Assembly (NCBI GenBank): GCA_046724035.1
Contig: JBKOVT010000120.1
Span: 1 to 51,743 of the forward strand
Direction of reading: 5' to 3'
Length of the DNA: 51,743 nucleotides
Source: Pseudomonadota bacterium
Lineage (GTDB): Bacteria > Pseudomonadota > Alphaproteobacteria > ATCC43930 > CGMCC-115725
Every line of letters begins with the position of its first letter. Position 1 is the first letter of the stretch. Under the pieces are notes generated by a model. The model was not told the origin of the DNA, did no database searches, and saw only the letters and a list, made by a program, of their open reading frames with translations. Shown here one piece after another: positions 9,703 through 51,190 of this stretch. Position numbers and translations under genes: made by a program.

Positions 9703-11577
9703 ATGAAACACAAGCATTTCCCCATCTATATCGTGTATGGCCGTCGTTCGAGCGATACCCAACGGGGGAATTCGTCGGAAGAACGGCAGTTGGACATCGA
9801 GCACTACCGGGGCCGGGCCGTAGAACTTGGTCTGCGCTTCCGGGAGGTTCCCTATTTCGATGACGCTAAAAGCGGCTTCTTTGGCGACAACCTGGAAGCT
9901 GAGCTTGGCAAGATTTTCGACGATGTCCAAACCGGTGCCTTGCCCAAAGGATCGATCATCGGCACCGAGTCGCATAGCCGCCTCGGTCGGTTGAAGCCGG
10001 GCGAGGCCCTGATGCAATACCTTCGGATCCTTGAACTCGGCATCAAGCTCGACATCAAGGGCAAAGCGCTGCGGAGTTGGGCATCGATCAACGGCTTGAT
10101 GGGGATCGGGATCCTGTCCGAAGACTTCATCGAAATGTATATGGCTTACAAGCACAGCGCCGATTTGCAGCGGGTCGAACGCGAGACGAACCGGATCAAG
10201 CGGAAGGCCGTGCGGGAGGGTCGGCAGGGCGGCACGATGAAAAAAGGCGGGGCCGGATGGTTCGTCGGCCATCGGTGTCCGGCATGGTTGGTGCCACGCG
10301 ACAGGCCGGAAATCTGGCGGGAAGACGGCAAGCCCTATCTATATGGGGTGGACGAGGAAATGGCCCGTATCATCCGCATGATCTTCGATTGGGCTGAGGC
10401 CGGGGTCGGCACGGTGCGGATTGAGCGGCGGCTCAACGATATGAAGTTTGCCCCGCTGGGCAACCACCACCGTAAGAACTCCGAAAAGATGATCGCCGGG
10501 TGGTCAGCCGGGATGGTCGGTGCGCTGTTGAAGAACATCGCGGTTATTGGATTGTGGCAGCCGCAGACCCGCATTCGCGAGCGCGAGATCGAGGACGCGA
10601 GTGGCGAGACGACTACCGAGCGCCTGCGCTATTCGATGAAGGTCAAGGACGGTGAGGCGATTCCCTATTACCCGCCGATCATCACACCGGGCCAATTCGC
10701 GCGCGTCGGCGACGGACTCCGCAAGCGGGACCGGGTGGATGACTCGAAAGCCTTTGCTCGCGGTGGCCGGACGGGTAGGGGTTTTGGCAACATTATCAAA
10801 GGGCTGGCGACTTGCGAGTGCTGCGGGGGCACCGTTACACTCTGGTCGCGCTCCGCCGACCCGAAGAACCCAAGAAGAGGCGGACCGATGAAATACCTGA
10901 GGTGCGACAACGCACGGCGGAGTGTCGTGCTACCGCACGGGTCGAAATGCCAGAACGTCCACGGCTACCGATACGCCGCGTTTGAGTCCGTACTGTTTGA
11001 TCAGTTGCTCTCCCCCAAGCTGATTCCGGTCTTACGCGACATGCTGCCGCACAGCCACGGTGACGATCTGTTGGACCGCCGTATCGCCGATGTTGAAGCC
11101 AAGATCGACGATGCGAATCAGCAAATTGAACGGCTGGTACGCCGAGCCATCAAGACCGACGACGATGACATCGCCGCCCAATACGAGCGCGAAGCCAAGA
11201 CGATCCGCGTGGGCCGTGACAAGGTTCTCAGCGAACGCGACCGGCTGTATGCGCAACGGATCAGCCAGAGCGAGCGCATTGAGGGTAAAATCGCGGAGAT
11301 TATCGCGCTGCTGCGGGAGACCACCGACATGCAGGCAAGAGAGGATGCCCGGACTAATTTGAACAGTTTGCTGGCCAGATATGCCAAGTTTGTCCTGACC
11401 GAAGACTACCGGATGAAGGTGCGGATCATTGGGCACAGCGGCTTGATGCCGGTAGAAGCGACGATGAGCGTCGCCGAAGGCTTGATCGGTATTAAGGTTC
11501 TCGACCGCGAGGGCGAGGTGCTGACCGACTATCAACGCGCCGGGCTCGCGTTGTTGGAGCCAATGGAAGCGGCTTAA
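9703..11577 (+). CDS. large serine recombinase (integrase)
   Basis: N-terminal resolvase catalytic domain (IVYGRRSSDTQ), a recombinase domain, a Cys-rich zinc ribbon (CECCGG...LRCDN...C) and a C-terminal coiled coil. 624 aa, intact. Confidence 0.9.
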   Translation: MKHKHFPIYIVYGRRSSDTQRGNSSEERQLDIEHYRGRAVELGLRFREVPYFDDAKSGFFGDNLEAELGKIFDDVQTGALPKGSIIGTESHSRLGRLKPGEALMQYLRILELGIKLDIKGKALRSWASINGLMGIGILSEDFIEMYMAYKHSADLQRVERETNRIKRKAVREGRQGGTMKKGGAGWFVGHRCPAWLVPRDRPEIWREDGKPYLYGVDEEMARIIRMIFDWAEAGVGTVRIERRLNDMKFAPLGNHHRKNSEKMIAGWSAGMVGALLKNIAVIGLWQPQTRIREREIEDASGETTTERLRYSMKVKDGEAIPYYPPIITPGQFARVGDGLRKRDRVDDSKAFARGGRTGRGFGNIIKGLATCECCGGTVTLWSRSADPKNPRRGGPMKYLRCDNARRSVVLPHGSKCQNVHGYRYAAFESVLFDQLLSPKLIPVLRDMLPHSHGDDLLDRRIADVEAKIDDANQQIERLVRRAIKTDDDDIAAQYEREAKTIRVGRDKVLSERDRLYAQRISQSERIEGKIAEIIALLRETTDMQAREDARTNLNSLLARYAKFVLTEDYRMKVRIIGHSGLMPVEATMSVAEGLIGIKVLDREGEVLTDYQRAGLALLEPMEAA

Positions 11578-23565: not shown

Positions 23566-24067
23566 ATGCGTCAGATCGAGCTCACCGGGTCTCAAAAAGG
23601 TGTTGTTCGGCGTTTATGTTGAAATGTGGCGGCGTTGGCGTCCCGGCATTCGCAGCTTCGCCGAACTGGAAAGGGACATCGAGAAGGGCTCAAAAGTTCT
23701 TGTCGACGGAATAACTGTCGACGACCGGGCGGAGCTCCCGGTCATCGTCGCTGATGCGGGGGATCATAAATTTTACGCTGCCATTTTCGACGATGATGAT
23801 GATGCAGTCGACGATATGACGAGCGAGGAATTAGACCAGCTTCGTCGATACGTCCTTTTTGGCAATGGTATCGTGCTCGTCCGCAAATGGCGGCGTCCAA
23901 GATCGACAATTGGTGCGGCTGTGGTCGGCGTCCCTTTCGCAGCGCAGGCGTCTCATGCCCAAGATCGAATTAGACAAGACGGCACAGGCCGGCCATGTGC
24001 TGTTTCGCTACATGCGTGCGGGCCATCGGTTCAAGAACAAGGTCGAGCCACCGTTGCCGGCGCATGA
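23566..24067 (+). pseudogene. hypothetical protein, frameshifted at an A5 run
   Basis: Strong RBS GGGAGAGGGGA precedes the ATG at 23566 (MRQIELTGSQK). The frame is lost at A5 23594-23598 and continues as ORF 23600..24067. The 3' limit is uncertain. Confidence 0.4.
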
Positions 24068-24300
24068 ACTGGCCCAATTGATCGGCGGCGGCAAAGAAGA
24101 ATTTGACGAGATCTACATCGAAGCGGCGGCCAGTCCGCCGGTCGTCTTTGATGGAAAAGGCCGACGACGTATTCGAGGTCATAATCAAGAAAAAATATCG
24201 CGCGATTGCGTTCTGGGACCCGCAGCTGGTAGCGGCCTGGCGGCATTACATTATCAGCGACGGGCCTCTACCGCCAAGACCGGAGCCGCGGAATCCATGA
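23955..24300 (+). pseudogene. small conserved hypothetical, paralog family B (copy 1), frameshifted
   Basis: MPKIELDKTAQAGHVLFRYMRAGHRFKNKVEPPLPAHELAQLI...VVFDGK, shift at GG 24159-24160, then ADDVFEVIIKKKYRAIAFWDPQLVAAWRHY. Collinear with the intact copy at 40350. Confidence 0.6.
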
Positions 24301-25569: not shown

Positions 25570-25626
25570 TTACGCCCGGATCGGCACCACGTTGCCGGCC
25601 ATCGGCGTCGACGTGTCGAGAAGCGC
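25570..25626. repeat. 57-nt direct repeat, copy A
   Basis: ttacgcccggatcggcaccacgttgccggccatcggcgtcgacgtgtcgagaagcgc, 55/57 identical to 26748-26804. Confidence 0.9.
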
Positions 25627-25627
25627 A

Positions 25628-26425
25628 TCAGCGGTGCCCGCCGTGACCACCACCGCCGGCATGAAAACCAACACCAAAGAGACCACCGTGAACCCCCCCA
25701 CCACGGAAAGCTCGGTGGAAACCACCCGGATGGAAGTGGTGATTATGGAAAAAACGTGACCAGAGCTCTACCGGAACGCTGTAGGCGTAGTACGGCAATG
25801 AGTAGTCGTCGTGGCTGTATGGCGCGTAATCGTAATAGTCCTGAACGGGAGCCGGTGCTGGGATCGCGGCAATGAGTGTCGCTGGCGTTGGCCTCGGCAG
25901 ACCAGCCGGCGCGGGAAACCATTGGAAAGGCCGATTTAGGAACCTGGGCGGTGCGCCAGGCTGGGGCTGACTAGCCGGGCTCGCAGAAGGCGCGGCTGGT
26001 CGAACCAGAGTTGCGTCGGACTTGGGCTTCAGCGTCATGGTGCCGGATGGACCGCTGAGCGAAACTTGTTGCGCTGAGATGCTGTCGACTCGCCAGTCAT
26101 TCAGTGCCTCGCCCTCCAACAGTGCTACCGACTTCGCGCCGGTCACGGCGAAAATCGCGATGCGCCGGTCCGGTTCGATCACGATACCGCTCAGCCTCAC
26201 ATTGGACGGTCGGAGGTCGCCGGCATGGTCCGTGGATGCGGCTTCCGGAGCGCGTTGCGTTGCGCCGGGTTCGGCTATCTCCCGCGCCTGCGCTCCGGTT
26301 TCCGTCGTCGGCGGGCTTCGCTCCAATAACGTGCTGTCGTGGGTGATAAAACCGCGTCCCAGGAGGATCACGGCTGTAGAGACCACGCACCCGGCGAGGA
26401 GCAAAGCTGGCAAGCGAGTCATCAT
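25628..26425 (-). CDS. membrane-anchored/secreted protein with Pro-rich linker and Gly/His-rich C-terminal tail
   Basis: Internal start MMTRLPALLLAGCVVSTAVILL at 26425. The central block VRLSGIVIEPDRRIAIFAVTGAKSVALLEGEALNDWRVDSISAQQVSLSG is reminiscent of GspC-type beta domains. Tail: HNHHFHPGGFHRAFRGGGVHGGLFGVGFHAGGGGHGGHR. The upstream part of ORF 25628..26914 is judged non-coding. Confidence 0.55.
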   Translation of the reverse strand: MMTRLPALLLAGCVVSTAVILLGRGFITHDSTLLERSPPTTETGAQAREIAEPGATQRAPEAASTDHAGDLRPSNVRLSGIVIEPDRRIAIFAVTGAKSVALLEGEALNDWRVDSISAQQVSLSGPSGTMTLKPKSDATLVRPAAPSASPASQPQPGAPPRFLNRPFQWFPAPAGLPRPTPATLIAAIPAPAPVQDYYDYAPYSHDDYSLPYYAYSVPVELWSRFFHNHHFHPGGFHRAFRGGGVHGGLFGVGFHAGGGGHGGHR

Positions 26426-26639
26426 GTCCGCACAATCGGTGTAGCCGGGACGAGCCTTGGGCGTTCGGGCACCTGCGAGCGGAATAAGTATAGCACAGCT
26501 TGGCGGTGACGCGGCTGGCGGCGGCGCTGCAGGCGGTGGAAGAGGGCCGCGCGGTCCAAGCCGTCGCGCGCTGAACGGGGTGGACCTATCAGGCCACCTT
26601 CGCCTGACGACGACGGAAAGCCACGATTTTCGGCGCGTC

Positions 26640-26810
26640 CCCTGTACCAGGTTCGGCCTACCTCGCCGCAGAACGTCGCCCACGCTTCTGACAGAAGCCG
26701 CCGCTTCTGGAAGCCGTCGCCGAGAGGGGATGTGCCCAGCGCTGGCGTTACGCCCGGATCGGCACGACGTTGCCGGCCATCGGCGTCGACGTGTCGAGGA
26801 GCGCGGCGCG
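26640..26810 (-). pseudogene. tyrosine integrase remnant (C-terminal ~55 aa, scrambled)
   Basis: The minus strand reads ...STPMAGNVVPIR (a box-II-like FRDWAGN region, equal to repeat copy B), then GDGFQKRRLLSEAWATFCGE, a typical P4-type integrase C-terminus. Confidence 0.4.
26748..26804. repeat. 57-nt direct repeat, copy B
   Basis: See copy A. It lies between the stop of the integrase pseudogene (26836) and the second integrase tail. Confidence 0.9.
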
Positions 26811-26835
26811 ATGTGGCTACCATCATGCCGCTGCC

Positions 26836-28040
26836 TTACGCTGCAGCCGCAGATGCACGACCATCTCTCCATCCCCACGCTTCGGCTTGGCTTCGCCGCA
26901 AAACGCCGCCCCATTCGTCAGCAAGCAAGCGCCGCTTCTCGAAGCCATCACCACGTCGATACGCCGCCTCAACCTTGTCGCCCAACGTGTGCGCCAGCGC
27001 GATTTCAGCGACCTCATGCGGGAAGTTGGTCTGCTCTGCCGCCCGGCGGAACGTGCTGCGGAGCCATGTGCCGTCAGTCCGCCGCGCCCATGCGCCGAAG
27101 CGTCATGAGGAGTGACATGTTGGAGAGTGGGCTGCCACGCCACGCTCCCGGAAACACGAATTGATCCGGCTTACCGGCTCGTCCGAGTAATGCGAGTGTG
27201 CGACATCCGAAAGTGGCACTCGATGCCCACGCTCGCCGCCTTCATTCGTTCAGCGGGAATAATCCACCCCCGCTCGGCCAGATTGATCTCTGACCAGCGC
27301 GCGCCCAGCACCTCCCCCGTCCGCGCCGCCGTCAAGATGGCGAACTCTAGGGCCCGCGCAGCTATACCGTAGTGCTGACGAAGCTCCGCCATGAACTCCC
27401 CGATTTGACCGTATGGCAGCGCGGCATGTGCTCCAACTTCCGCACCTTGGCTCGCGCCGGGATGGTGTGCGCCAGATTGCGTTTCCACTGAGCCGGGTGT
27501 CGGTCCCGCACGAAAGCCTCGCACGGCTGCGTAATTGAGCACCGCTTCGATACGTCCGCGCACTCGCGTCGCTCTTTCGGGCTTCATGTTGCAGATCCGG
27601 ATCGAGCACTTGCGCGACGAGCCGCGTGTCAATGGCTGAGACCGGCAAATTTCTGATGATGTGATAGGCGTATGTCTCAAGGGTCGCGATTCCATTGAGC
27701 GCGGTGCTTCGGATTGCGCCATCCCGCCTCGTTTCTCTTGATGTACTCGTGAGCGGCGTTTCTTTTCGCGTTCGCGACAGGCACACCTGAACGTTAGCGC
27801 CGACAGCGGCCATTCTCTAGTTTAAGCTGGGGTGCGAGAACTCGTCTGCCGCGCCCAATTCTGATCCGCGGAAATGCGTGTGGTTTGCCTGGCGCTCACT
27901 CGTCCCGGGGAATGCGCCAGGTAGCGGACGGGTTCTCCATCGCTACACCGCCGGGTTAGGGTTCCTTGGCCGGCAGAAACAGGCCGGCAATTGCGGATAG
28001 TAAATGGCGCACCGCTTATGAACCGCTGTTGACCGCGCAT
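26836..28040 (-). pseudogene. P4-type tyrosine integrase, multiply frameshifted
   Basis: Pieces in all three minus frames: FTIRNCRP...DGEPVRYL (N-terminal), AGWRNPKHRAQWN, LETYAYHIIRNLPVSAIDT, KPERATRVRGRIEAVLNYA, ALEFAILTAARTGEVLGARWSEINL, VFPGAWRGSPLSNMSLLMTLRRMG, LTAHG..., FPHEVAEIALAHTLGDKVEAAYRRGDGFEKRR. Confidence 0.75.
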
Positions 28041-28288
28041 GCTGGCAGTCGCCTGGCGCTCTCCCACAAATCCGGCAGCCCGGTATCGGCAGGTGCTCGT
28101 CGATCAGCCGCGCGAGACTGACCCCGACCGAGTGGCAGGCGACTTCGAGCAATCACCGCTAAAGAATGACTGCTCTTGGCGCTTAGCAGACGCTTAGGCT
28201 GGAGATCGCTCGCTTCCGGTTTTGCTCCAAACCGGACCTCCACGAAGGATACGAAGACACCTGCCCCCCGCGAGGATGCTGCGTCGTC

Positions 28289-29269: not shown

Positions 29270-29486
29270 CCAGGCGCTCGCTCCGGCTGAGCGTCACGCG
29301 GCCGTAACGCTCTCAGGTGAGGGTGATTTTTGGGTCCGAGCGGCGGATTATTCGAGCTCTGGAGAATTATTGTGGAAGCGGGGCCATTTTTCCGCATGGC
29401 AGGGTTCGAAGGATTTCCTGCATTTTAAGGTTAATACGCCATTAAGATTGAGACGCTACGCATCTCTCGCAACGAGGCGAGGGCAG

Positions 29487-29939
29487 ATGAGCGACCACTA
29501 TCTTCAAGTGATCTCGTTGGTCGAGCGGCTTCATCGGCAATTTCTTGAAGTCGTGAAACTTGAGCTCGACGCGCTAAGAATTCACGAGGTGAACAACGTG
29601 CAAGCACTAATGCTGTTCAACATGGGCGACGCTGAGATATCGGTCGGCGAGTTAACATTGCGCGGTTATTATCTCGGCTCAAACGTATCCTATAACGTTA
29701 AGAAGTTGTCCGAGACGGGTTACCTCGTGGCCGAGCGCTCGGCGCATGATCGCCGCTCGATCCGCGTTCGGCTGACGTCAAAGGGGCGCAACTTGCGGAT
29801 TCGGCTCTCCGAAATGCTTAACCGGCACATCGACATGCTGGCTGAAAGTCAGATCAAGGATAAGGATCTCCAAATCGCGGTTGCGACCCTTCAGCGGCTT
29901 GAGCGGTTCTGGCTGCGGCCCGGCGCCCCCAGCGCTTAG
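29487..29939 (+). CDS. MarR-family winged-helix transcriptional regulator
   Basis: VGELTLRGYYLGSNVSYNVKKLSETGYLVAERSAHDRRSIRVRLTSKGRNL is a typical MarR wHTH plus wing. Lower-GC gene. Confidence 0.75.
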   Translation: MSDHYLQVISLVERLHRQFLEVVKLELDALRIHEVNNVQALMLFNMGDAEISVGELTLRGYYLGSNVSYNVKKLSETGYLVAERSAHDRRSIRVRLTSKGRNLRIRLSEMLNRHIDMLAESQIKDKDLQIAVATLQRLERFWLRPGAPSA

Positions 29940-30582: not shown

Positions 30583-30730
30583 GTGCTCACCTCCGCGCCG
30601 GCCCCTAACACGGTGATCGTTAACGAGCGGTAAGGCTGGATAGCGCGTTTTCGCTACGGCAGGCGCGCCTATACTCCTAATCAGGAAATGAGGTATGTAT
30701 CGCTACGCACTCCACCGCACGAGGATCATC

Positions 30731-31246
30731 ATGCCGAGAGGCCGTCCGCCGGGAAGACCGGGCAAGACAGCAGCGCGCAAAACAGCAGCGCGGAGAGGCA
30801 CGGCTCGCAAGGCGCCAGCGCGAAGAACCGCAGCCCGGAAGACGACAGCGCGTAAAACGGCAGCGCGCAAAACAGCAACCCGCCGGAATACCGGCGCCCG
30901 AAAAACCGCAGCCCGCCGAACCACAGTTCGAAAGACCGCAGCCCGCAAGGCGCCGGCGCGCAGAACCGCAGCTCGGAAGACCGCAACGCGTAGACCAGCA
31001 ACGCGGCGCACCGCAGCTCGGAAGACTACCGTCCGCAAGACACCAACGCGGCGCACCGCAGCTCGGAAGACCGCAACGCGGAAGCCCGCACGTCGCAACA
31101 CAACAGCGCGCAAGTCTCCCCTGACAAGGCGGCGTAGAACGCCGAAAATCAGCCCGCCGGAACTGCTTCCCACCGAACGATCGCAGGACGAGGAGCAGCG
31201 ATCGGAGCTGACGCCTCGAGAAGAGCTACCGCCCGAGGAGACCTGA
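30731..31246 (+). CDS. histone-H1-like / AlgP-like basic repeat protein
   Basis: GAGGA RBS. MPRGRPPGRPGK is followed by about 25 degenerate (T)AARK(T)/AARR units and an acidic C-terminal tail. The antisense ORF 30703..31386 is a shadow. Confidence 0.75.
   Translation: MPRGRPPGRPGKTAARKTAARRGTARKAPARRTAARKTTARKTAARKTATRRNTGARKTAARRTTVRKTAARKAPARRTAARKTATRRPATRRTAARKTTVRKTPTRRTAARKTATRKPARRNTTARKSPLTRRRRTPKISPPELLPTERSQDEEQRSELTPREELPPEET
30757..31128 (+). repeat. degenerate 15-nt-period coding tandem repeats (AARKT units)
   Basis: Repeated gcagc(g/c)cg(c/g)aa(a/g)ac-type units are visible throughout the gene body. Confidence 0.7.
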
Positions 31247-32375: not shown

Positions 32376-33035
32376 CTAGGCAGTCGCAACCTTCCGGGCG
32401 GATGCGCTCCTTCTCGCCGCCCGGATGGAAGACTTCCGAGACCGATTGCTGGCCGTCTTCGCGCTCGTTCTGAGACTCGTTCTGGTATTGCTTTTGCGAC
32501 CAGAATTTGCGGGGCCGGTCTTCCTCGCGCTGGTTCTGCCTTTAGCTTTCTTGGCAATGGATCCAGTCTTCCTCGCGCCGATAGTGCTGCGCCGTGGAGA
32601 CGATTTCTCGGGTTTCGTTACGGATAGCGCTCCGGGTCTTGCCCCCTGGGGTGAGCGTTTGCGACCAAGCCCTGTCGATTTGGCGAGTTGGGAGCGCCGC
32701 TCGGAATAGTTGGGAGCGGTCATCGGATAGTCTGAAAGCAGTCTCCAGCGACTTCTATATTCGGCGACCGACAGCCCATGCCTGGACTGCAAGTGCTTTT
32801 TGAGCATTTGGCCCCTGTATCCGCATTCGATGCAGATGATGTGGTCAGGCCGAACAGAGCGTCGCACCGACACTGCCGGAACACGAGATAGTTCTTCTAC
32901 AACCTCCTTGCCGAGACCCGTAAGTGTCGAATGGACAGCATTGATCAGGCCGGAGATCTGGTCGGTTGCAATTGGGTTGTGCCGGACGTAAGCCGCCACG
33001 ATCTCAGTCGTGAGATGTTGCTTTTCGGCAATCAT
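32376..33035 (-). CDS. mucR: MucR/Ros-family zinc-finger regulator with a long basic C-terminal extension
   Basis: MIAEKQHLTTEIVAAYVRHNPIATDQISGLINAVHSTL...PAVSVRRSVRPDHIICIECGYRGQMLKKHLQSRHGLSVAEYRSRWRLLSDYPMTAPNYSERRSQLAK, then a tail of about 85 aa rich in K/R/S/T. Confidence 0.85.
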   Translation of the reverse strand: MIAEKQHLTTEIVAAYVRHNPIATDQISGLINAVHSTLTGLGKEVVEELSRVPAVSVRRSVRPDHIICIECGYRGQMLKKHLQSRHGLSVAEYRSRWRLLSDYPMTAPNYSERRSQLAKSTGLGRKRSPQGARPGALSVTKPEKSSPRRSTIGARKTGSIAKKAKGRTSARKTGPANSGRKSNTRTSLRTSAKTASNRSRKSSIRAARRSASARKVATA

Positions 33036-33193
33036 GGCGGAAATTCCTCTTAGGACTTGCTGGTCGTGCAATCTTGAAGCATGTCCGCCGATATGAGCGG
33101 GGTCGGTTGGAAAATCAACCTCCGCTGAATACTCAAAATGTTCCAGGCTGGCATTTAGTCGGCATGCTACGTCTCGGAGAAAGGAGGAATTCA
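33036..33193. promoter_or_regulatory. divergent promoter region between the two MucR genes
   Basis: 158-bp lower-GC intergenic spacer between divergent starts. A strong AAGGAGG RBS precedes 33194. No motif could be verified by eye. Confidence 0.25.
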
Positions 33194-33618
33194 ATGGCTG
33201 ACGCGCAATCGACTGCATCGGTCAATCGGGAACTCGCCGCAAGAATTGTGGCTGCATATGTCGGCGCAATCAGGTGCGTTCCGAGCAGATCCCCGTCTTA
33301 ATTTTGACGGTTCATCAGGCACTCGCCGGTCTAGCGAAACCCGAACCTGAAGATGTCGGTCCCAGGACACCCGCAGTCTCGATCCGCCAATCTGTTCGAC
33401 CTGATTACCTTGTGTGCCTTGAATGCGGACGACGCTCTAAAATGCTGCGTCGACATTTAGTAGACGCCCACGGGCTGAGCACGGACGAATATCGGACGTG
33501 TTGGAAACTACGAAGTGATTACCCAATGGTTGCTCCTGCATACAGCGAGCACCGGTCTGGATTGGCAAAGCAGTTTGGTCTGAGCCGCGGTGGACGAAAA
33601 TCGGCCACCATCTGTTAA
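33194..33618 (+). pseudogene. MucR/Ros-family regulator, second copy, frameshifted
   Basis: MADAQSTASVNRELAARIVAAYVGA, frame lost at AA 33268-33269, then VRSEQIPVLILTVHQALAGL...PAVSIRQSVRPDYLVCLECGRRSKMLRRHLVDAHGLSTDEYRTCWKLRSDYPMVAPAYSEHRS. Confidence 0.8.
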
Positions 33619-33695: not shown

Positions 33696-34866
33696 CTACT
33701 GAGCAGACCCCTCGATTCGAACACGTTCTCGGGGCGGTAAATTGACCGGACGATACGACGGGTCTGCGTCAAAGCGCTCGAATACCGAGTAATGCACGCG
33801 GGAGCCGTCGTCGATCCGTCGTGGCTCGCAAAGCGGCAGATACAATCCCAATAGGGAAGGACGCCGCGGCCAGTCGCGCCACTTCACCCGCTTCGGTATG
33901 ATCTCCAGCCGCTTCCAGCCGATGGTCATCGAGTTGTGCAGCTTCGCCGTAAAGCTCGGCGTGACATAGGTCCGTGTGCTGCCCTGTCGCTCCTGCCCGA
34001 GCACAAGATGATTATACATTGATCGGTTGATTTGAAGGCCGTGCTCGACCGCTTCCTCGATCAACCATCCCAGGGGATATTTGGCGGGGCCGCTCTCAGT
34101 CTCGGAGTAGCCGCCTCCGATGTCGGCGTGCACACCTGCGAACCATACTTGTTTGATGTCCTGCGGGCGCACATTGATATTGTCGAACGCGTTTGGTTGA
34201 TAATTTTGCGGCTCGGCCCAACGATTGATCCGAAACATTCTGCGCCGCTCGTCGATGGCGATTGCTTGCCGAAAAATTTCCACGCGGGTTTGTGCGCGTG
34301 TAGGGGAGCGCTTGTAGGCTTGGGAGGTATAGGCGGTCAGGGCGAGGGACAATCACGGAACTTACGGTATGCCAGACGCCTATAAGCTTGATCGGCACAC
34401 GCCGGGTCCCAATGACTCGTTCGAACCCCCATGCAATCTCGAACTCCCCTTCCTGGGCAGCCCGCTTGTAGGCGGTCAAGGCGTAGGAGGCGAGATCGCG
34501 TTGCGGACGCTCCAGCAGGCCGATGAGGTATAGGAAACCCGCAAGAACGCGCATCGTGTATGCGCCGCGGCTGAAGCCGAAAAGATAAACTTGGTCGCCT
34601 TCTGCATACGTGTCGATCAGGAAACGATATGCGCAGAGAACGTCCTCATCCAGGCCATAGCCAGTAAGTAGTCCCCAGACGCCGAGCGCATCGCTTTTCA
34701 AGCGGGACCACGCCTCGCTGTCGCTGATTGTGCCGACACCCGGATGGTAGAAGACCACTTGGTCCTCATTCTTGCGGACGATCCGGTATAGCTTCAGGAC
34801 ATTCGACAGGTTGGCCTCGACCTCATTCCCGGTGCCGTCGCAGCAGATGACGATGTTCTTGGGCAT
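33696..34866 (-). pseudogene. DUF2235 (Tle1-like) alpha/beta hydrolase, frameshifted
   Basis: MPKNIVICCDGTGN, LFGFSRGAYT, GVWHTVSSV, then a frame change near 34281-34290 into VEIFRQAIAIDERRRMF...WFAGVHADIGGGY...PLGWLIEEA. Confidence 0.8.
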
Positions 34867-35229: not shown

Positions 35230-35512
35230 TGAATGGGGACGACCAGCAAGGTTGACGCTGGTTTAGGAGCGCGAACGGGCGTCGCGGGCCAGTTATCCCC
35301 ATCCCCGCGATTCACAGGGGATAGATGGCCGGTCATCCTTTCCGCAGGTGGAAATCCAACGTGGCAAATCCCACCTTCGGCTTATCGGCGGTGCCGAACT
35401 CGTTGAGATGATCTTCAAGCATTACGAGAAGTTTGAGCCGGCGATAAAGACGCTGCTGTCGTTGAAGAACAGCTACATACCAGCCGCCATAATGGGCGCG
35501 GCGGCTGGTTGA
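35230..35512 (+). pseudogene. Mrr-like restriction endonuclease remnant
   Basis: ...PRDSQGIDG... fused to ...HLRLIGGAELVEMIFKHYEKFEPAIKTLLSLKNSY, a typical Mrr_cat C-terminal end. The core between the two is deleted. Confidence 0.4.
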
Positions 35513-35579: not shown

Positions 35580-35833
35580 AGGTTCGGCGGTACTGTAGAT
35601 CGGCCGCTTACTGAAGCGCTGAAGGCTCTCCTCGGGTGCACTACCGCGCTCGACTGGCGTTGGGAAAAGACTCCGCGCGGAGTCTTGATCGTGGGCCAGA
35701 TAGGCCGGATCGGGTCAAGCGAAGCTTCCTTTGGGCACCCCTCACTTACGGCGATCGCTCAGTGCGCCCGGGGTCCACCGGCTCGCCTCGAATGCCCTGG
35801 GATAGAGCAGCCCCGGCCCAGAGAAGGTTCCTT
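35580..35833 (+). repeat. ~255-nt non-coding element, copy 1 (candidate structured RNA or MITE-like repeat)
   Basis: Collinear with 39571-39831 from aggttcggcggtactgtagatc to gagaaggttcctt. Indels are not multiples of 3 and no ORF is shared. Internal hairpins are described in the findings. Confidence 0.6.
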
Positions 35834-36158
35834 ATGGCCCCCCCACCCTCCACTTACGGCAGCGTGCTGGCGCACCCGGGTCCCGGCTGCTCAGCCCGCG
35901 CATAAGCCGACGAGCAACACGGCGATAATCAGTAAGCAACCGCGGGTGATCAACCTCGGTGATCCGGTTGCGCCCTCGCGCTTACTACTACCACCTAGCC
36001 CGCTCACCACCAGACCTGTTAACGCTGAAATAACAACAAAGCTCTGCCGGTTCTCGACGCTACGTTGTAGGATTTAGACAAGCTCTGCGGCGCGAGACGC
36101 AGCAGTAGTAAGCAACAATTCATTGACGCCCTTAAGGGCTGCTCCGGGGAGGTGCCGC

Positions 36159-36254
36159 ATGTCATTGCTCGACATCGCAGTGATCGGCTTCATGTCCTTC
36201 ATCGCGCTCACCGCGGTCGGACTGATTTCCCTTCTTACCGTCTATCGTCATTAA
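36159..36254 (+). CDS. possible 31-aa membrane peptide
   Basis: GGGGAGG precedes the ATG. MSLLDIAVIGFMSFIALTAVGLISLLTVYRH. Confidence 0.35.
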   Translation: MSLLDIAVIGFMSFIALTAVGLISLLTVYRH

Positions 36255-36854
36255 GGATGCCCCCGCTCACCACGTAATCGGCTCCCGCGCGCCGCATTCC
36301 GTACAGCGCAGCAGCCGCGTCCCTGGCGCAAAAGCCCCGAGTGTGTTGCTGCGGCTCGTATTTAGTGCAACGGCCCGCTCGGCGGCGCTTGTAGAGTCGC
36401 TATCGCCAGCCGGACACGAAGCATCAGAAGCACGCGGTCGGCATCCCGCCGATCCAGCGCCCGATCAGGTGTCGGCTGAGTGGCCTCCTGTAGCGCTTAC
36501 ATAAAATTACAATTCCTGACGCGCCGCCCGTCCGCCCATCCCTTCGCGAAGCACCTGTGCGGTTTGGGGGCAGTCCAAGCCGCCCGGTGCCGCCGTCTAG
36601 CCAGCGGGATTTTGGACACCGAAGTGGCGCGCCGGCTTTTGGAGCTGGCGGTCGAGTTTGATGATCGGGCAGTTGCGGAGGAAGCGCGGTCGCCATTGCT
36701 GTCCTAGGGCAGGCATGGCGCTAGCCGCCATGCGTTGAGTCGGGACCCGGCCGGAAGCGCCGCAGCGGGCGGGCCGGCTTCGAGATCGTGCGGCCGTCAG
36801 AACGAGCTTCGGGCTAGAGTAAACTACCGAGATCGCGAGGCGAGATCGCGACGA

Positions 36855-37390: not shown

Positions 37391-37534
37391 CACACCGATC
37401 ACCGGGCCCGATCTGGCCTTCAGGAGGCGCAGCACGACTCGGGCATGCCCATTCCGGGTTGCGCGCGGGCGTTGCGCTGTACCGAATGTTGCTCACGGGA
37501 TGCCGATTTTGTCGTGACCGGGCAGGGGCGCTAG
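37391..37534 (+). pseudogene. zinc-ribbon small protein, paralog family D, C-terminal fragment
   Basis: DHRARSGLQEAQHDSGMPIPGCARALRCTECCSRDADFVVTGQGR aligns with the C-terminus of 50987..51190. The N-terminus is missing. Confidence 0.5.
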
Positions 37535-37553: not shown

Positions 37554-37736
37554 GTGGAGAGTGTCGTGCAAAACTACTCGGCTGATCGGGGCATGGCTTG
37601 GATCCGCGCCACACGCCGATTTGACGATATTGACGATTCGATTTTGATGGGTCCTGCGACGTTCTGGCTTGCTCCGCGATCCATATGCGGCGCGCGGGAT
37701 GCGGATTATGCCGTCAGTGGTGCGAACGCTGACTAG
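37554..37736 (+). pseudogene. family D-like degenerate copy
   Basis: It ends ...ICGARDADYAVSGANAD. The upstream part is split over two frames (TTRLIGAW / GMAWIRATRRFD). Confidence 0.35.
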
Positions 37737-37804
37737 GGACCAAACCAAGGCAATCTGGCGTTTGTGAATTGAAAAAGGAGCATTCCCCGGAGTACCGGCT
37801 GGCC

Positions 37805-37996
37805 ATGTACGAGGTTGAAGTACATCTCCAAATGAAGTTGGCCGATGCGATGGGCGAGTTGCGAGTGTGGCTCGACCACAACGACTATGTGCCTGTGAGT
37901 TTCGAGATCAGCAAGAAGACAGAGGGCGTACTGGTTCGAATGGTCTTTGCCGAGGACCGTGCGGCTAGAGAGTTTAAGCGCAGTTTCGCGCGCTGA
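37805..37996 (+). CDS. paralog family A (copy 2)
   Basis: MYEVEVHLQMKLADAMGELRVWLDHNDYVPVSFEISKKTEGVLVRMVFAEDRAAREFKRSFAR. Confidence 0.6.
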   Translation: MYEVEVHLQMKLADAMGELRVWLDHNDYVPVSFEISKKTEGVLVRMVFAEDRAAREFKRSFAR

Positions 37997-38021: not shown

Positions 38022-38252
38022 CTATTGGACCCGGTTATCCCCTACCGGCCTCAGCTCTCCACCAAATGCTTCCGCACAGGCTATGGCCTCGCTCTCGACC
38101 TTGAATTCCAAGCGGCATGTGACGCGCTCGTCCTCCGTGGCGCAGCGGAAGGCATCGGGTTCAAAACGCTGCGCGTCCAGCCATTCTCTAATACGCGCCA
38201 TGATTGCAGAGAGCTGTTCGGGCTCACGGTGAATTTCGACCACGTACAACAT
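38022..38252 (-). CDS. paralog family A (copy 3)
   Basis: MLYVVEIHREPEQLSAIMARIREWLDAQRFEPDAFRCATEDERVTCRLEFKVESEAIACAEAFGGEL. Convergent with copy 2, 25 nt apart. Confidence 0.65.
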   Translation of the reverse strand: MLYVVEIHREPEQLSAIMARIREWLDAQRFEPDAFRCATEDERVTCRLEFKVESEAIACAEAFGGELRPVGDNRVQ

Positions 38253-39049: not shown

Positions 39050-39442
39050 TTACGCCGCGGCATTGGGCACGATCTCAACGGGAACGTCGAAGCATCGGCG
39101 CAGCGCCGCAGCAAAGGATGCAGGGCCACTACCGCTCGCCTTCAAAATCACGTCGACCGCTCCATAGATCATCCATTCGCCCGTGTTCAGTACGAAGACA
39201 AAGCATCGGTTCTCATTCTCGCGAACGGCCGTAAAGCCTAAATCACTTTGGTAAGGGACAATACTCAGCCCGGCATCCCTGGCCACTTGGCGCATTTCGT
39301 CCGATAGCATGTGCTGCCTTAAATCAGAATTATAGCAAACGTCATACTCGTTACCCTTTACTTTCGCAAGCACGTTCCTGCCGGTGTTCTTGCCGCTGTA
39401 CAGTATCCTGTAGACAAAATCACCCAGTGACTGTAGCGGCAC
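39050..39442 (-). CDS. hypothetical protein (130 aa)
   Basis: Lower-GC ORF, convergent with the receiver gene and 5 nt from it. No family recognised. Confidence 0.45.
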   Translation of the reverse strand: MPLQSLGDFVYRILYSGKNTGRNVLAKVKGNEYDVCYNSDLRQHMLSDEMRQVARDAGLSIVPYQSDLGFTAVRENENRCFVFVLNTGEWMIYGAVDVILKASGSGPASFAAALRRCFDVPVEIVPNAAA

Positions 39443-39570: not shown

Positions 39571-39831
39571 AGGTTCGGCGGTACTGTAGATCAGCCGCTT
39601 GCTGAAGCGCTGAAGGCGTTCGCTCCGTACACTACCGCGCCTCGACTCGCGCAGTTAGGAAAAGACTCCGCGCGGGGTCTTGATCGTGGGCCAGATAGGC
39701 CGGGTCGGGATCGAGCGAAGGTTCCTACTGACCCACCCACCACTTACGGCGATCGCTTGGTGCGCCCCGGGTCCACCGGCTCGGCTCGAATGCCCTGGAT
39801 AGAGCAGCCCCGGACCCCGAGAAGGTTCCTT
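39571..39831 (+). repeat. ~255-nt non-coding element, copy 2
   Basis: See 35580-35833. Same orientation, 3,991 bp downstream. Confidence 0.6.
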
Positions 39832-40349
39832 GACCTACCCCGCCATTAATGGCTGCCCGTTGGGGAACTCGGTCCCCTTCATACCTGTCACGCTGCGTGA
39901 TGCCACGCGCGAGGCTGGTTGTTAAACAACGCGACTACCGTAAGCCTTTACCCGACGACATTCGTCGACGGGGTACGGTAGCCGCGATCAGCGCCATCTA
40001 TTCCCGACGGCTCCGCACGGAGTCTTTGCATCGGCAAATCGCGCCTGCACCAAAATTTGGAACCAGGCGTCAGACCGAGTCGCGACCAAAAGCCGGCGGT
40101 GTCGACGAAGGACCAGTTGTTCAGGGGGACGACCGCTTACGGTGTGCTGAGCGGAAGTTCGCTTCAGACTTCGTCAGCTTCCGGTTTTGCCCCTAAGCCG
40201 ACCTTCAATTTGCCGACGCAACCCTGCCCGACATCCTGTTCGGTCGGGTAGATGGATGGGCCGCAGCGGAGCCTGCCCGGTGCCCGCACCATTATAACCG
40301 CACATTAATATGGCCGCTGTATGTTTCGAATTCCACGCTGAGGTGCCCG

Positions 40350-40730
40350 ATGCTGAAGCTTGATGCGGAGAAAGCCGCGAAGATCGGCTATGTCCTGTTC
40401 CGCTACATGCGCGCGCGACCTCGCTTCAAGCATGAGTTGGTTGAACGGCCACTCCCGGCTCACGAGTTGGCCGAGCTGATCTGCGCCGGCAGATATGATT
40501 TTGACGAAGTTTACATAGACCCTGCCGCCAACCCGGCGATCGCGTTGGATGGGAAAGCGGATGAAGTATTCGAGGCACTGATCAAAAAGAAGTACCACGC
40601 CATCCCGTTCTGGGACCCGATGCTGGTCGCCGCATGGCGTCACTACGTCATCGTGACGGTCCGCTACCTCAACGGCCAAGTCCGAGCCGCAGTCGCCTTG
40701 GCGTCTAGCGGGCGAGCGGTTTCTGCCTAG
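40350..40730 (+). CDS. paralog family B (copy 2, intact)
   Basis: MLKLDAEKAAKIGYVLFRYMRARPRFKHELVERPLPAHELAELI...DGKADEVFEALIKKKYHAIPFWDPMLVAAWRHY. Confidence 0.6.
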   Translation: MLKLDAEKAAKIGYVLFRYMRARPRFKHELVERPLPAHELAELICAGRYDFDEVYIDPAANPAIALDGKADEVFEALIKKKYHAIPFWDPMLVAAWRHYVIVTVRYLNGQVRAAVALASSGRAVSA

Positions 40731-50986: not shown

Positions 50987-51190
50987 ATGACGCTTGGCCA
51001 AGCGCTCGCCGCGCATGTCCGGCTGATCGTGTGGTGCCAGGGCTGTAATCACCGGGGTGAGCCCGATCTCGCCACCCAGGTCGCCCAGCAGGGCTCGGGA
51101 ATGCCCGTTCCTGAATGGGCGCGGCTGTTGCGGTGTACGGAATGCGGCGGGCGGGATGCGGATTTTGTCGTCAGCGGTGCGAAACGCTAG
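50987..51190 (+). CDS. zinc-ribbon small protein, paralog family D (intact copy)
   Basis: GGAG RBS. MTLGQALAAHVRLIVWCQGCNHRGEPDLATQVAQQGSGMPVPEWARLLRCTECGGRDADFVVSGAKR (CxxC...CxxC). Confidence 0.6.
   Translation: MTLGQALAAHVRLIVWCQGCNHRGEPDLATQVAQQGSGMPVPEWARLLRCTECGGRDADFVVSGAKR

Follow-up and report, generated by a model that had tools for sequence, protein, structure and literature searches.

A sequence of about 255 nt that occurs twice on one stretch of bacterial DNA, with no reading frame in common, raises the question of what has been kept in it, i.e., a structured RNA or a MITE, the two possibilities put forward in the initial annotation, or something else. The stretch analysed, hereafter the window, is 51,743 nt long. 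Within it, the two copies lie where the initial annotation had placed them, namely copy 1 at 35580-35833 and copy 2 at 39571-39831, both on the + strand and hence equally oriented, their starts being separated by 3,991 bp, and they are indeed collinear from AGGTTCGGCGGTACTGTAGATC through GAGAAGGTTCCTT. Their identity reaches 87.1% over 263 aligned nt (BLASTN, E = 2e-82), and the longest perfect runs between them are of 27 nt, about what a 13% neutral divergence is calculated to predict. Copy 2 is recovered by BLASTN as well as by a profile built from the two copies, with which nhmmer found no third copy in the 51.7-kb window. Copy 1 sits within a 646-nt gap between a short called ORF upstream (35348-35512), which has no Pfam match, and a 31-aa hydrophobic ORF downstream, and copy 2 within a divergent intergenic region of ~1 kb between an 85-aa gene (called as 130-aa) and a 126-aa gene.

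Copy 2 is spanned by one 140-aa ORF, copy 1 is split between two frames, and the copies share no reading frame; when copy 2 was translated in six frames, none of 5.8 billion protein sequences matched at E <= 10. Since the indels between the copies (1, 1, 2, 3-4, 1 and 1 nt) are not multiples of three, the open frames differ and no protein matches, the conservation is not coding, as had already been claimed, and does not correspond to a recognisable pseudogene; the repeat is non-coding. The initial annotation could place the element in no RNA family, and the search with Rfam 15 covariance models agrees, with no gathering-level match in the whole window, no match overlapping either copy at E <= 10 and none overlapping the copies found in the related contigs L021, L037 or L028 at E <= 1. 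ARAGORN detected no tRNA or tmRNA, and a tRNA-like appearance of the 3' part (GGCUCGAAUGCC, GAUAGAGCA) was discarded as a resemblance that neither ARAGORN nor Rfam supports. Plasmid and phage sequences yielded no BLASTN match, pattern scans of viral contigs gave none either, a 20-mer from the best conserved block (Block A, see below) met only three chance 20-nt matches in 185,579 species-representative genomes, and a literature search on the literal motifs returned nothing relevant.

Homologs were found only in soil-metagenome contigs. Those sharing the flanking genes represent strains 98.6-100% identical, and copy 1 itself is 99.7-100% identical in the strain-level contigs L004-L006, L029, L030, L032-L036 and L038. 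Further away, a short ENA contig carries a diverged ortholog of copy 2 (L021:121-395(-)), recovered by the two-copy profile with 199.6 bits (E = 5e-60) and 79.8% identical to copy 1 by BLASTN. A metagenome scan with a pattern from the 3' core returned 13 contigs, 10 of them the same locus, and added only L037 and L028 to the two copies in 51.7 kb, giving 2-3 copies per genome as judged from contigs, an estimate that is biased, like the range of truncations, because a search anchored in the 3' core of one metagenome collection detects only the copies that keep this core. A reading of the truncated copies as nested 3' fragments of an integration target was dropped as unusable, the search pattern itself lying in the 3' core. 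The L037 copy lacks the first ~60 nt, contains an extra palindrome and has flanks unrelated to the window even at the protein level, and L028 retains only ~100 nt of the element, i.e., the 3' core and the duplicate M2 described below, again between unrelated flanks.

The lookup of homologs by the adjacent 85/130-aa gene gave one informative ortholog (L021), one more near-identical strain (L039) and six loci devoid of the element, namely L022-L025, L040 and the L013-L020 group. As the next-closest relatives of the 85-aa gene (79-87% amino-acid identity), L022-L025 keep this gene, together with the response regulator in L023-L025, and the element is missing upstream of it; their homology to the window ends at 39314 and does not resume, and L023 joins the region of the 85-aa gene to ~30.1 kb of the window. 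The downstream (3') flanks of copy 1, copy 2 and the L021 copy are unrelated to one another, which, with the homology ending at 39314, places the element at seams of a mosaic region. In L013-L020, which represent another soil lineage and are free of the repeat, two serine resolvase genes flank a gene distantly homologous to the 85-aa gene (56% identity), so the 85-aa gene travels with mobile DNA.

Comparison of these copies shows that the repeat is a composite, made of a 5' arm, Block A, a fast-changing middle, a 3' core of ~65 nt and a partial tandem duplicate. The length of about 255 nt first proposed needs correction, since weak homology among the copies and their relatives runs ~45-55 nt beyond the proposed 3' end, to ~35888 and ~39875, across a C-rich tract and a CCAYTWAYGGC motif, so that the repeat unit is of ~300 nt. 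In copy 1, this extension (35834-35888, +) comprises the C-rich tract and M2, a partial tandem duplicate of M1, and is common to L037 and, more weakly, to copy 2, L021 and L028; in copy 2, it (39832-39875, +) holds a diverged M2, and a 3'-module profile from five lineages aligns through 39867. The internal half-duplication reported for copy 1 is real, as local alignment of M1 (35736-35783) with M2 (35844-35888) gives z = 6.3 and none of 500 shuffles scores as high. A further arrangement suggested by MAFFT alignment, i.e., three tandem units each beginning with AGGTTC, was abandoned because the similarity between U1 and U2 (z 0.0-1.2) is not above that of shuffles; only the M1/M2 duplication stands, and the similarity between U2 and U3, in the 3' extension of copy 2, is marginal (z = 2.2).

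Block A is composed of a palindrome, the heptamer TGATCGT and the motif GGCC-AGATA-GGCC, with 4-5 variable columns in 53. The palindrome (35667-35686; halves AAGACTCCGC and GCGGAGTCTT) is perfect over 20 bp, where ~0.05 would be expected in 52 kb, and its stems are invariant in all lineages carrying it, only the central 2 nt varying (GCGC or GCAC). In copy 2 (39662-39681), one arm base is changed from A to G in the window (GGGGTC), and the palindrome is perfect in the strains L007, L008, L036 and L039. Its 16-bp core contains two GANTC sites, GANTC being the recognition sequence of the alphaproteobacterial CcrM methylase. The second palindrome of the block, GGCC-AGATA-GGCC (35694-35706, and 39689-39701 in copy 2), is invariant in copy 1, copy 2, L021 and L037. 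An isolated palindrome core (GGCTCCGCACGGAGTC) is also present at 40009-40024, 345 nt to the 3' side of the copy 2 palindrome, so that GACTCCGNNCGGAGTC with <=2 mismatches has 3 matches in the window against 0.38 expected, with >=3 matches in 0/100 shuffles, and L037 bears a second palindrome 108 nt upstream of the element's own. The 3' core (GGGGTCCACCGGCTCGSCTCGAATGCCCTGGATAGAGCAGCC...GAGAAGGTTCCTT; 35770-35833, +; 39769-39831 in copy 2) is, M2 aside, the sole part of the element present in L028.

When four lineages are compared, the degree of conservation differs significantly along the element (chi-square 52.3, 11 df, p = 2e-7), most of it falling in Block A and the ~65-nt 3' core. The middle segment exists in two clearly distinct forms, type I (both window copies) and type II (L021 and L037). 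Identity of the window to L021 within the element is of 87% in the 5' half, 66% in the middle and 92% in the 3' core; taken as a whole, the element diverges about like the neighbouring spacer (87% against 85-88%), the genes being at 94-99% (98.8% for the response-regulator gene and 94.3% for the 85-aa gene). Both strain-level polymorphisms seen in copy 2 change the base to that of copy 1, a pattern that suggests gene conversion between the copies.

The proposal of a structured RNA had been drawn from four helices described as kept in both copies. All four can be drawn in the two window copies, but two of them break in L021 and L037, the CACT/AGTG helix being unpaired in 2/7 rows carrying it (L021 and L037) and the CCGGGG/CCCCGG helix having 75% paired cells. 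Helix 1 is 95.8% paired, and its two unpaired cells are both in the L021 row upon inspection of the alignment. Only the AAGACTCC-GCGC-GGAGTCTT hairpin is kept everywhere, with stems that never vary, and is as such silent on whether RNA or DNA is conserved, since invariance is equally expected of a DNA palindrome. Minimum free energies were no better than those of dinucleotide shuffles, copy 1 giving z = +1.15 on the + strand and +1.16 on the - strand, and copy 2 giving 0.00 and +1.12, respectively. For covariation, L021, L037 and L028 were added to the window copies in an alignment of 8 sequences from 5 lineages, on which RNAalifold predicted 59 pairs, 1 of them compensatory, with an unfavourable covariation term. 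The covariation of the consensus structure (0.061) was close to that of shuffles (0.057; 117/500 as high) with most pairs never varying and hence low power, and that of the four helices was 0.051 against 0.055 (414/500 as high), again at the low power of five lineages; given so little variation among them, these results are compatible with an RNA as well. Hairpins can form on both strands, and three one-sided changes are G-U-compatible only on the + strand against one only on the - strand, a weak hint in favour of a + strand RNA (roughly p ~0.1-0.3). In consensus scans of either strand, neither a sigma-70-like promoter nor an intrinsic terminator was recognised at the copies, nor was any conserved across lineages; the alphaproteobacterial promoter form CTTGAC-N17-CTATAT gave nothing conserved on either strand, and none of the resemblances to sigma-54, ECF-type, SOS-box or MOBQ nic-site sequences seen by eye is conserved. 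On this comparison of sequences, a discrete structured RNA is not supported, the covariation in five lineages being, at low power, no better than in shuffles and the folding z between 0 and +1.2. The initial annotation had counted missing covariation support as a refutation, and by this standard the RNA proposal fails, at the little power that five lineages afford.

The features of a mobile element were looked for likewise. No terminal inverted repeats pair the two ends, although AGGTTC occurs near both in direct orientation, and there are no target-site duplications at the borders of copy 1, copy 2 or the L021 copy, where the bases flanking the 5' border differ (TTCT, GGTG and GGCG) and no matching duplication is present at the 3' side. 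No reverse transcriptase, TnpB/IscB, TnpA or transposase is encoded next to the copies or elsewhere in the window, in line with what had been noticed for the adjacent genes, and the MITE alternative finds no support in these ends nor in the very low copy number. An IS200/IS605-derived element or a TnpB/IscB guide RNA was rejected, as there is no tnpB, iscB or tnpA in the window and the left flanks differ. Integron attC sites possess RYYYAAC ... GTTRRRY core sites, measure 57-141 bp and go with an IntI integrase and a cassette array; the element is ~300 nt long, shows no such core sites at its ends on inspection, and no integron integrase is among the annotated genes, so this class was rejected too. 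Tblastn with the two resolvases of L013 found no serine resolvase or invertase in the window, whose sole serine recombinase is 26 kb from the repeat.

The explanation we prefer, to which we would give a little less than an even chance, is that of a composite intergenic repeat of low copy number, which duplication and recombination would have carried around a mosaic island and whose conserved blocks would act in cis. The copies would be paralogous pieces of intergenic DNA, disseminated passively by segmental duplication and by recombination between island modules, with some gene conversion and no transposition of their own. The conserved blocks would function in cis in long gene-poor intergenic regions, either as protein-binding palindromes or as transcript hairpins, and the repeat as a whole would not be a discrete, highly structured RNA. 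A side effect of the copies would be to provide portable homology at which island segments could be exchanged or deleted. The mosaic synteny, the separable modules, the low copy number and the uneven conservation fit this reading, as do the G+C shift, the broken genes and the internal paralogs and repeats of the island and, as a hint of gene conversion, the polymorphisms of copy 2. Against it, no protein partner is at hand for the palindromes, and the neighbourhood of both copies is devoid of resolvase, transposase and relaxase genes; moreover, the unrelated flanks of L037 and L028 could be compatible with active mobility as well, and the uneven conservation could stem from a mosaic ancestry of the middle segment (type I/II) rather than from selection.

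Other explanations have to be weighed against this composite repeat. About one chance in four, in our estimate, goes to a functionless relic, i.e., a single duplication of intergenic DNA in the island followed by neutral drift, the helices being chance pairing in DNA of 60% G+C. The overall divergence equal to that of the neighbouring spacer, the folding no better than that of shuffles, the 27-nt runs expected from neutral divergence and surroundings full of pseudogenes and other duplications would all be accounted for, but a single duplication sits uneasily with homologs in two further unrelated contexts (L037 and L028), and neutral drift with a conservation significantly heterogeneous across four lineages and with a perfect 20-bp palindrome, of which ~0.05 are expected in 52 kb, kept in all lineages and recurring alone. 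Rather unlikely, in our view, is a new lineage-restricted non-coding RNA (ncRNA) gene or leader, present as two paralogous copies on the + strand with several hairpins, or else an sRNA of the - strand whose end would be formed by the palindrome and the UUUU after it. Such an RNA would explain why type I and type II, different as their loops are, both keep the Block A hairpins and a GGCG...CGCC stem, why the one-sided changes in shared hairpins are mostly G-U-compatible on the + strand, and why Block A and the 3' core are better conserved than the spacer; the location of the copies in long gene-free intergenic regions and the UUUUCC that comes after the palindrome on the - strand in all lineages would suit it too. 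It is opposed by the MFE z of 0 to +1.2 on both strands, by 1/59 pairs compensatory, an unfavourable RNAalifold covariation term and a score equal to that of shuffles (in five lineages), by the breakage of two of the four helices in L021 and L037, by a strain-level polymorphism that is not reduced within the element, and by the lack of any Rfam match at E <= 10 or of a conserved promoter or terminator consensus. At its strongest, and with a similarly low probability, the RNA would be a ~250-300-nt ncRNA new to description, from an uncultured soil alphaproteobacterial lineage, with Block A and the T-loop-like 3' core as functional centre and a structure hidden by the near absence of variation in five close lineages.

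Two explanations that call upon dedicated recombination enzymes appear less probable still. For a non-autonomous mobile element (MITE or IS200/IS605-type PATE) mobilised in trans, which we judge improbable, one could invoke the sharp 5' border at AGGTTCGG in copy 1, copy 2 and L021, the four different genomic contexts and the presence or absence among relatives at the locus beside the 85-aa gene; yet the ends are not inverted repeats, no flank duplication matches, a genome has 2-3 copies, of which those other than the full-length ones are truncated or mosaic, no clean empty site is available as homology does not resume in the relatives without the element, and neither transposase nor TnpA or TnpB is present in the window. 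A multi-site res-like recombination locus, at which the intervening 3.7-kb segment could be excised through the direct copies, is more improbable again. The occurrence of several palindromes within ~250 bp, the two copies in direct orientation, the mosaic nature of the island and the distant homolog of the 85-aa gene between two resolvase genes in L013-L020 speak for it, but no resolvase or invertase is found in the window, no contig carries a recombined single hybrid copy, and the regions flanking the resolvases of L013 share no motif with the element.

Several known systems resemble the composite repeat in part. The BIMEs and REPs of Escherichia coli and the RIMEs of Rhizobium occur in tens to hundreds of copies per genome, with units of 20-150 nt. 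Like them, the present element is non-coding, intergenic and built from separable modules with hairpin-forming palindromes that occur alone or in varied combinations, and neither has terminal inverted repeats or target duplications; unlike them, it is ~300 nt long, amounts to 2-3 copies, was encountered in only a few lineages of soil metagenomes and resembles no described repeat in sequence. With MITEs it shares being small, non-coding, repeated and present or absent between relatives, but it lacks the terminal inverted repeats, the target-site duplication, the many near-identical copies and the related transposase. Paralogous sRNA genes of islands and plasmids, e.g., multi-copy alphaproteobacterial Rfam families, are comparable for the duplicate intergenic copies in the same orientation, the accessory region, the C-rich tracts and the hairpins, whereas the element has no Rfam match (E <= 10), no recognisable promoter or terminator and no thermodynamic or covariation signal. 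Boundary or linker sequences of mosaic phages and islands are likewise conserved non-coding sequences where synteny changes, and for this reason could serve as homology for module exchange; those at module junctions are usually short, in contrast to the present element, at which exchange is hypothetical. The repeat is therefore best read as an unclassified dispersed intergenic repeat, outside every described family, and not as a new kind of system. If so, it would be another low-copy intergenic repeat marking the seams of mosaic islands, in itself not surprising, and would bear on how islands are reshuffled and on why metagenome assemblies break there; it would gain greater weight should a new RNA, or binding sites for a regulator encoded on the island, be recognised in the palindrome block and the 3' core.

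As for the surroundings of the repeat, the window, a metagenome-assembled contig, shares its DNA with JGI contig Ga0683306_0000141 and with numerous contigs from soil and rhizosphere, JGI 3300086679, 3300014497 and 3300061856 being among the samples in which the organism occurs. Its gene families include Ros/MucR, PAS_5 and DUF1153, with best plasmid-borne relatives in Rhizobiales and Rhodospirillales, which points to an uncultured soil bacterium that is probably an alphaproteobacterium. At ~9 kb, the G+C content falls from ~66% to 55-62% beside a gene for a 624-aa large serine recombinase (9703-11577, +), which is probably the edge of an integrated island holding everything downstream, the repeat included. 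The island contains MarR (29370-29939), Ros/MucR (32376-33218 and 33274-33618), histone-H1-like and two-component / c-di-GMP signalling genes and many small ORFs without known function, as well as several internal paralogs and a second repeat family. The latter, also non-coding, has ATGCGGCGSGCGGGATGCGGATTWTGYCGTCAG as its core and is present at 36262-36322 (-), 37398-37521 (+), 37685-37730 (+) and 51048-51188 (+); two of its copies (36283-36319 and 37464-37500) are inverted (78%) and bracket ~1.1 kb. The homology of other strains to the window breaks exactly at 36281-36283 (L026 and L010 on one side, L032 on the other), which suggests a hot spot of insertion or recombination at this second family. 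In addition, a 31-nt hairpin motif (GCTTCCGGTTTTGCYCC.AA.C.GACCT.CA) is 84% shared between 28212-28242 and 40177-40207, without convincing similarity beyond ~35 nt; an integrase fragment is ~400 nt away from one site, and the other follows copy 2 at a distance of 345 nt. The integrase fragment (27171-27813, -) consists of two overlapping ORFs with weak matches to the central domain of phage integrases and is probably a broken tyrosine integrase, a sign of past integration inside the island.

Several genes near the repeat deserve description. The 31-aa ORF downstream of copy 1 (36159-36254, +; MSLLDIAVIGFMSFIALTAVGLISLLTVYRH) is strongly hydrophobic, has a GGAGG ribosome-binding site 6 nt upstream and is annotated as a gene in all of the related contigs; its product may be a small membrane peptide, possibly toxin-like, and unrelated 31-aa hydrophobic ORFs occur in L013 and L022. 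A role of the repeat as the leader of a type I toxin-antitoxin system was rejected, since the hydrophobic ORF lies downstream of copy 1 only, with none near copy 2 or the L037, L028 and L021 copies. Upstream of copy 1, a Tle1-like gene (DUF2235, T6SS phospholipase effector family; 33696-34866, -) is broken up into a 218-aa and a 256-aa ORF that overlap, and looks frameshifted, as a related metagenome contig has a 390-aa version. Between the copies, two convergent ORFs of ~75 aa (37769-37996, +, and 38022-38252, -) both contain WLD and look alike by eye; they belong to no Pfam family and gave no mutual match by tblastn. The 126-aa gene downstream of copy 2 (40350-40730) has a paralog 16 kb upstream (23955-24289; 57-73% amino-acid identity), which is apparently frameshifted and has no copy of the repeat next to it. 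Farther upstream in the island, direct repeats at 25570-25626 and 26748-26804, 96% identical and 1,178 bp apart, are found around a 428-aa ORF of unknown family (25628-26914, -), and this version may hold an internal duplication since 265 aa is the length of most others in its 90% cluster. Finally, a 15-nt periodic array at 30746-31108 lies inside the ORF 30695-31246, the product of which is lysine/alanine-rich, of nucleoid type, and matches the histone H1-like HC2 family.
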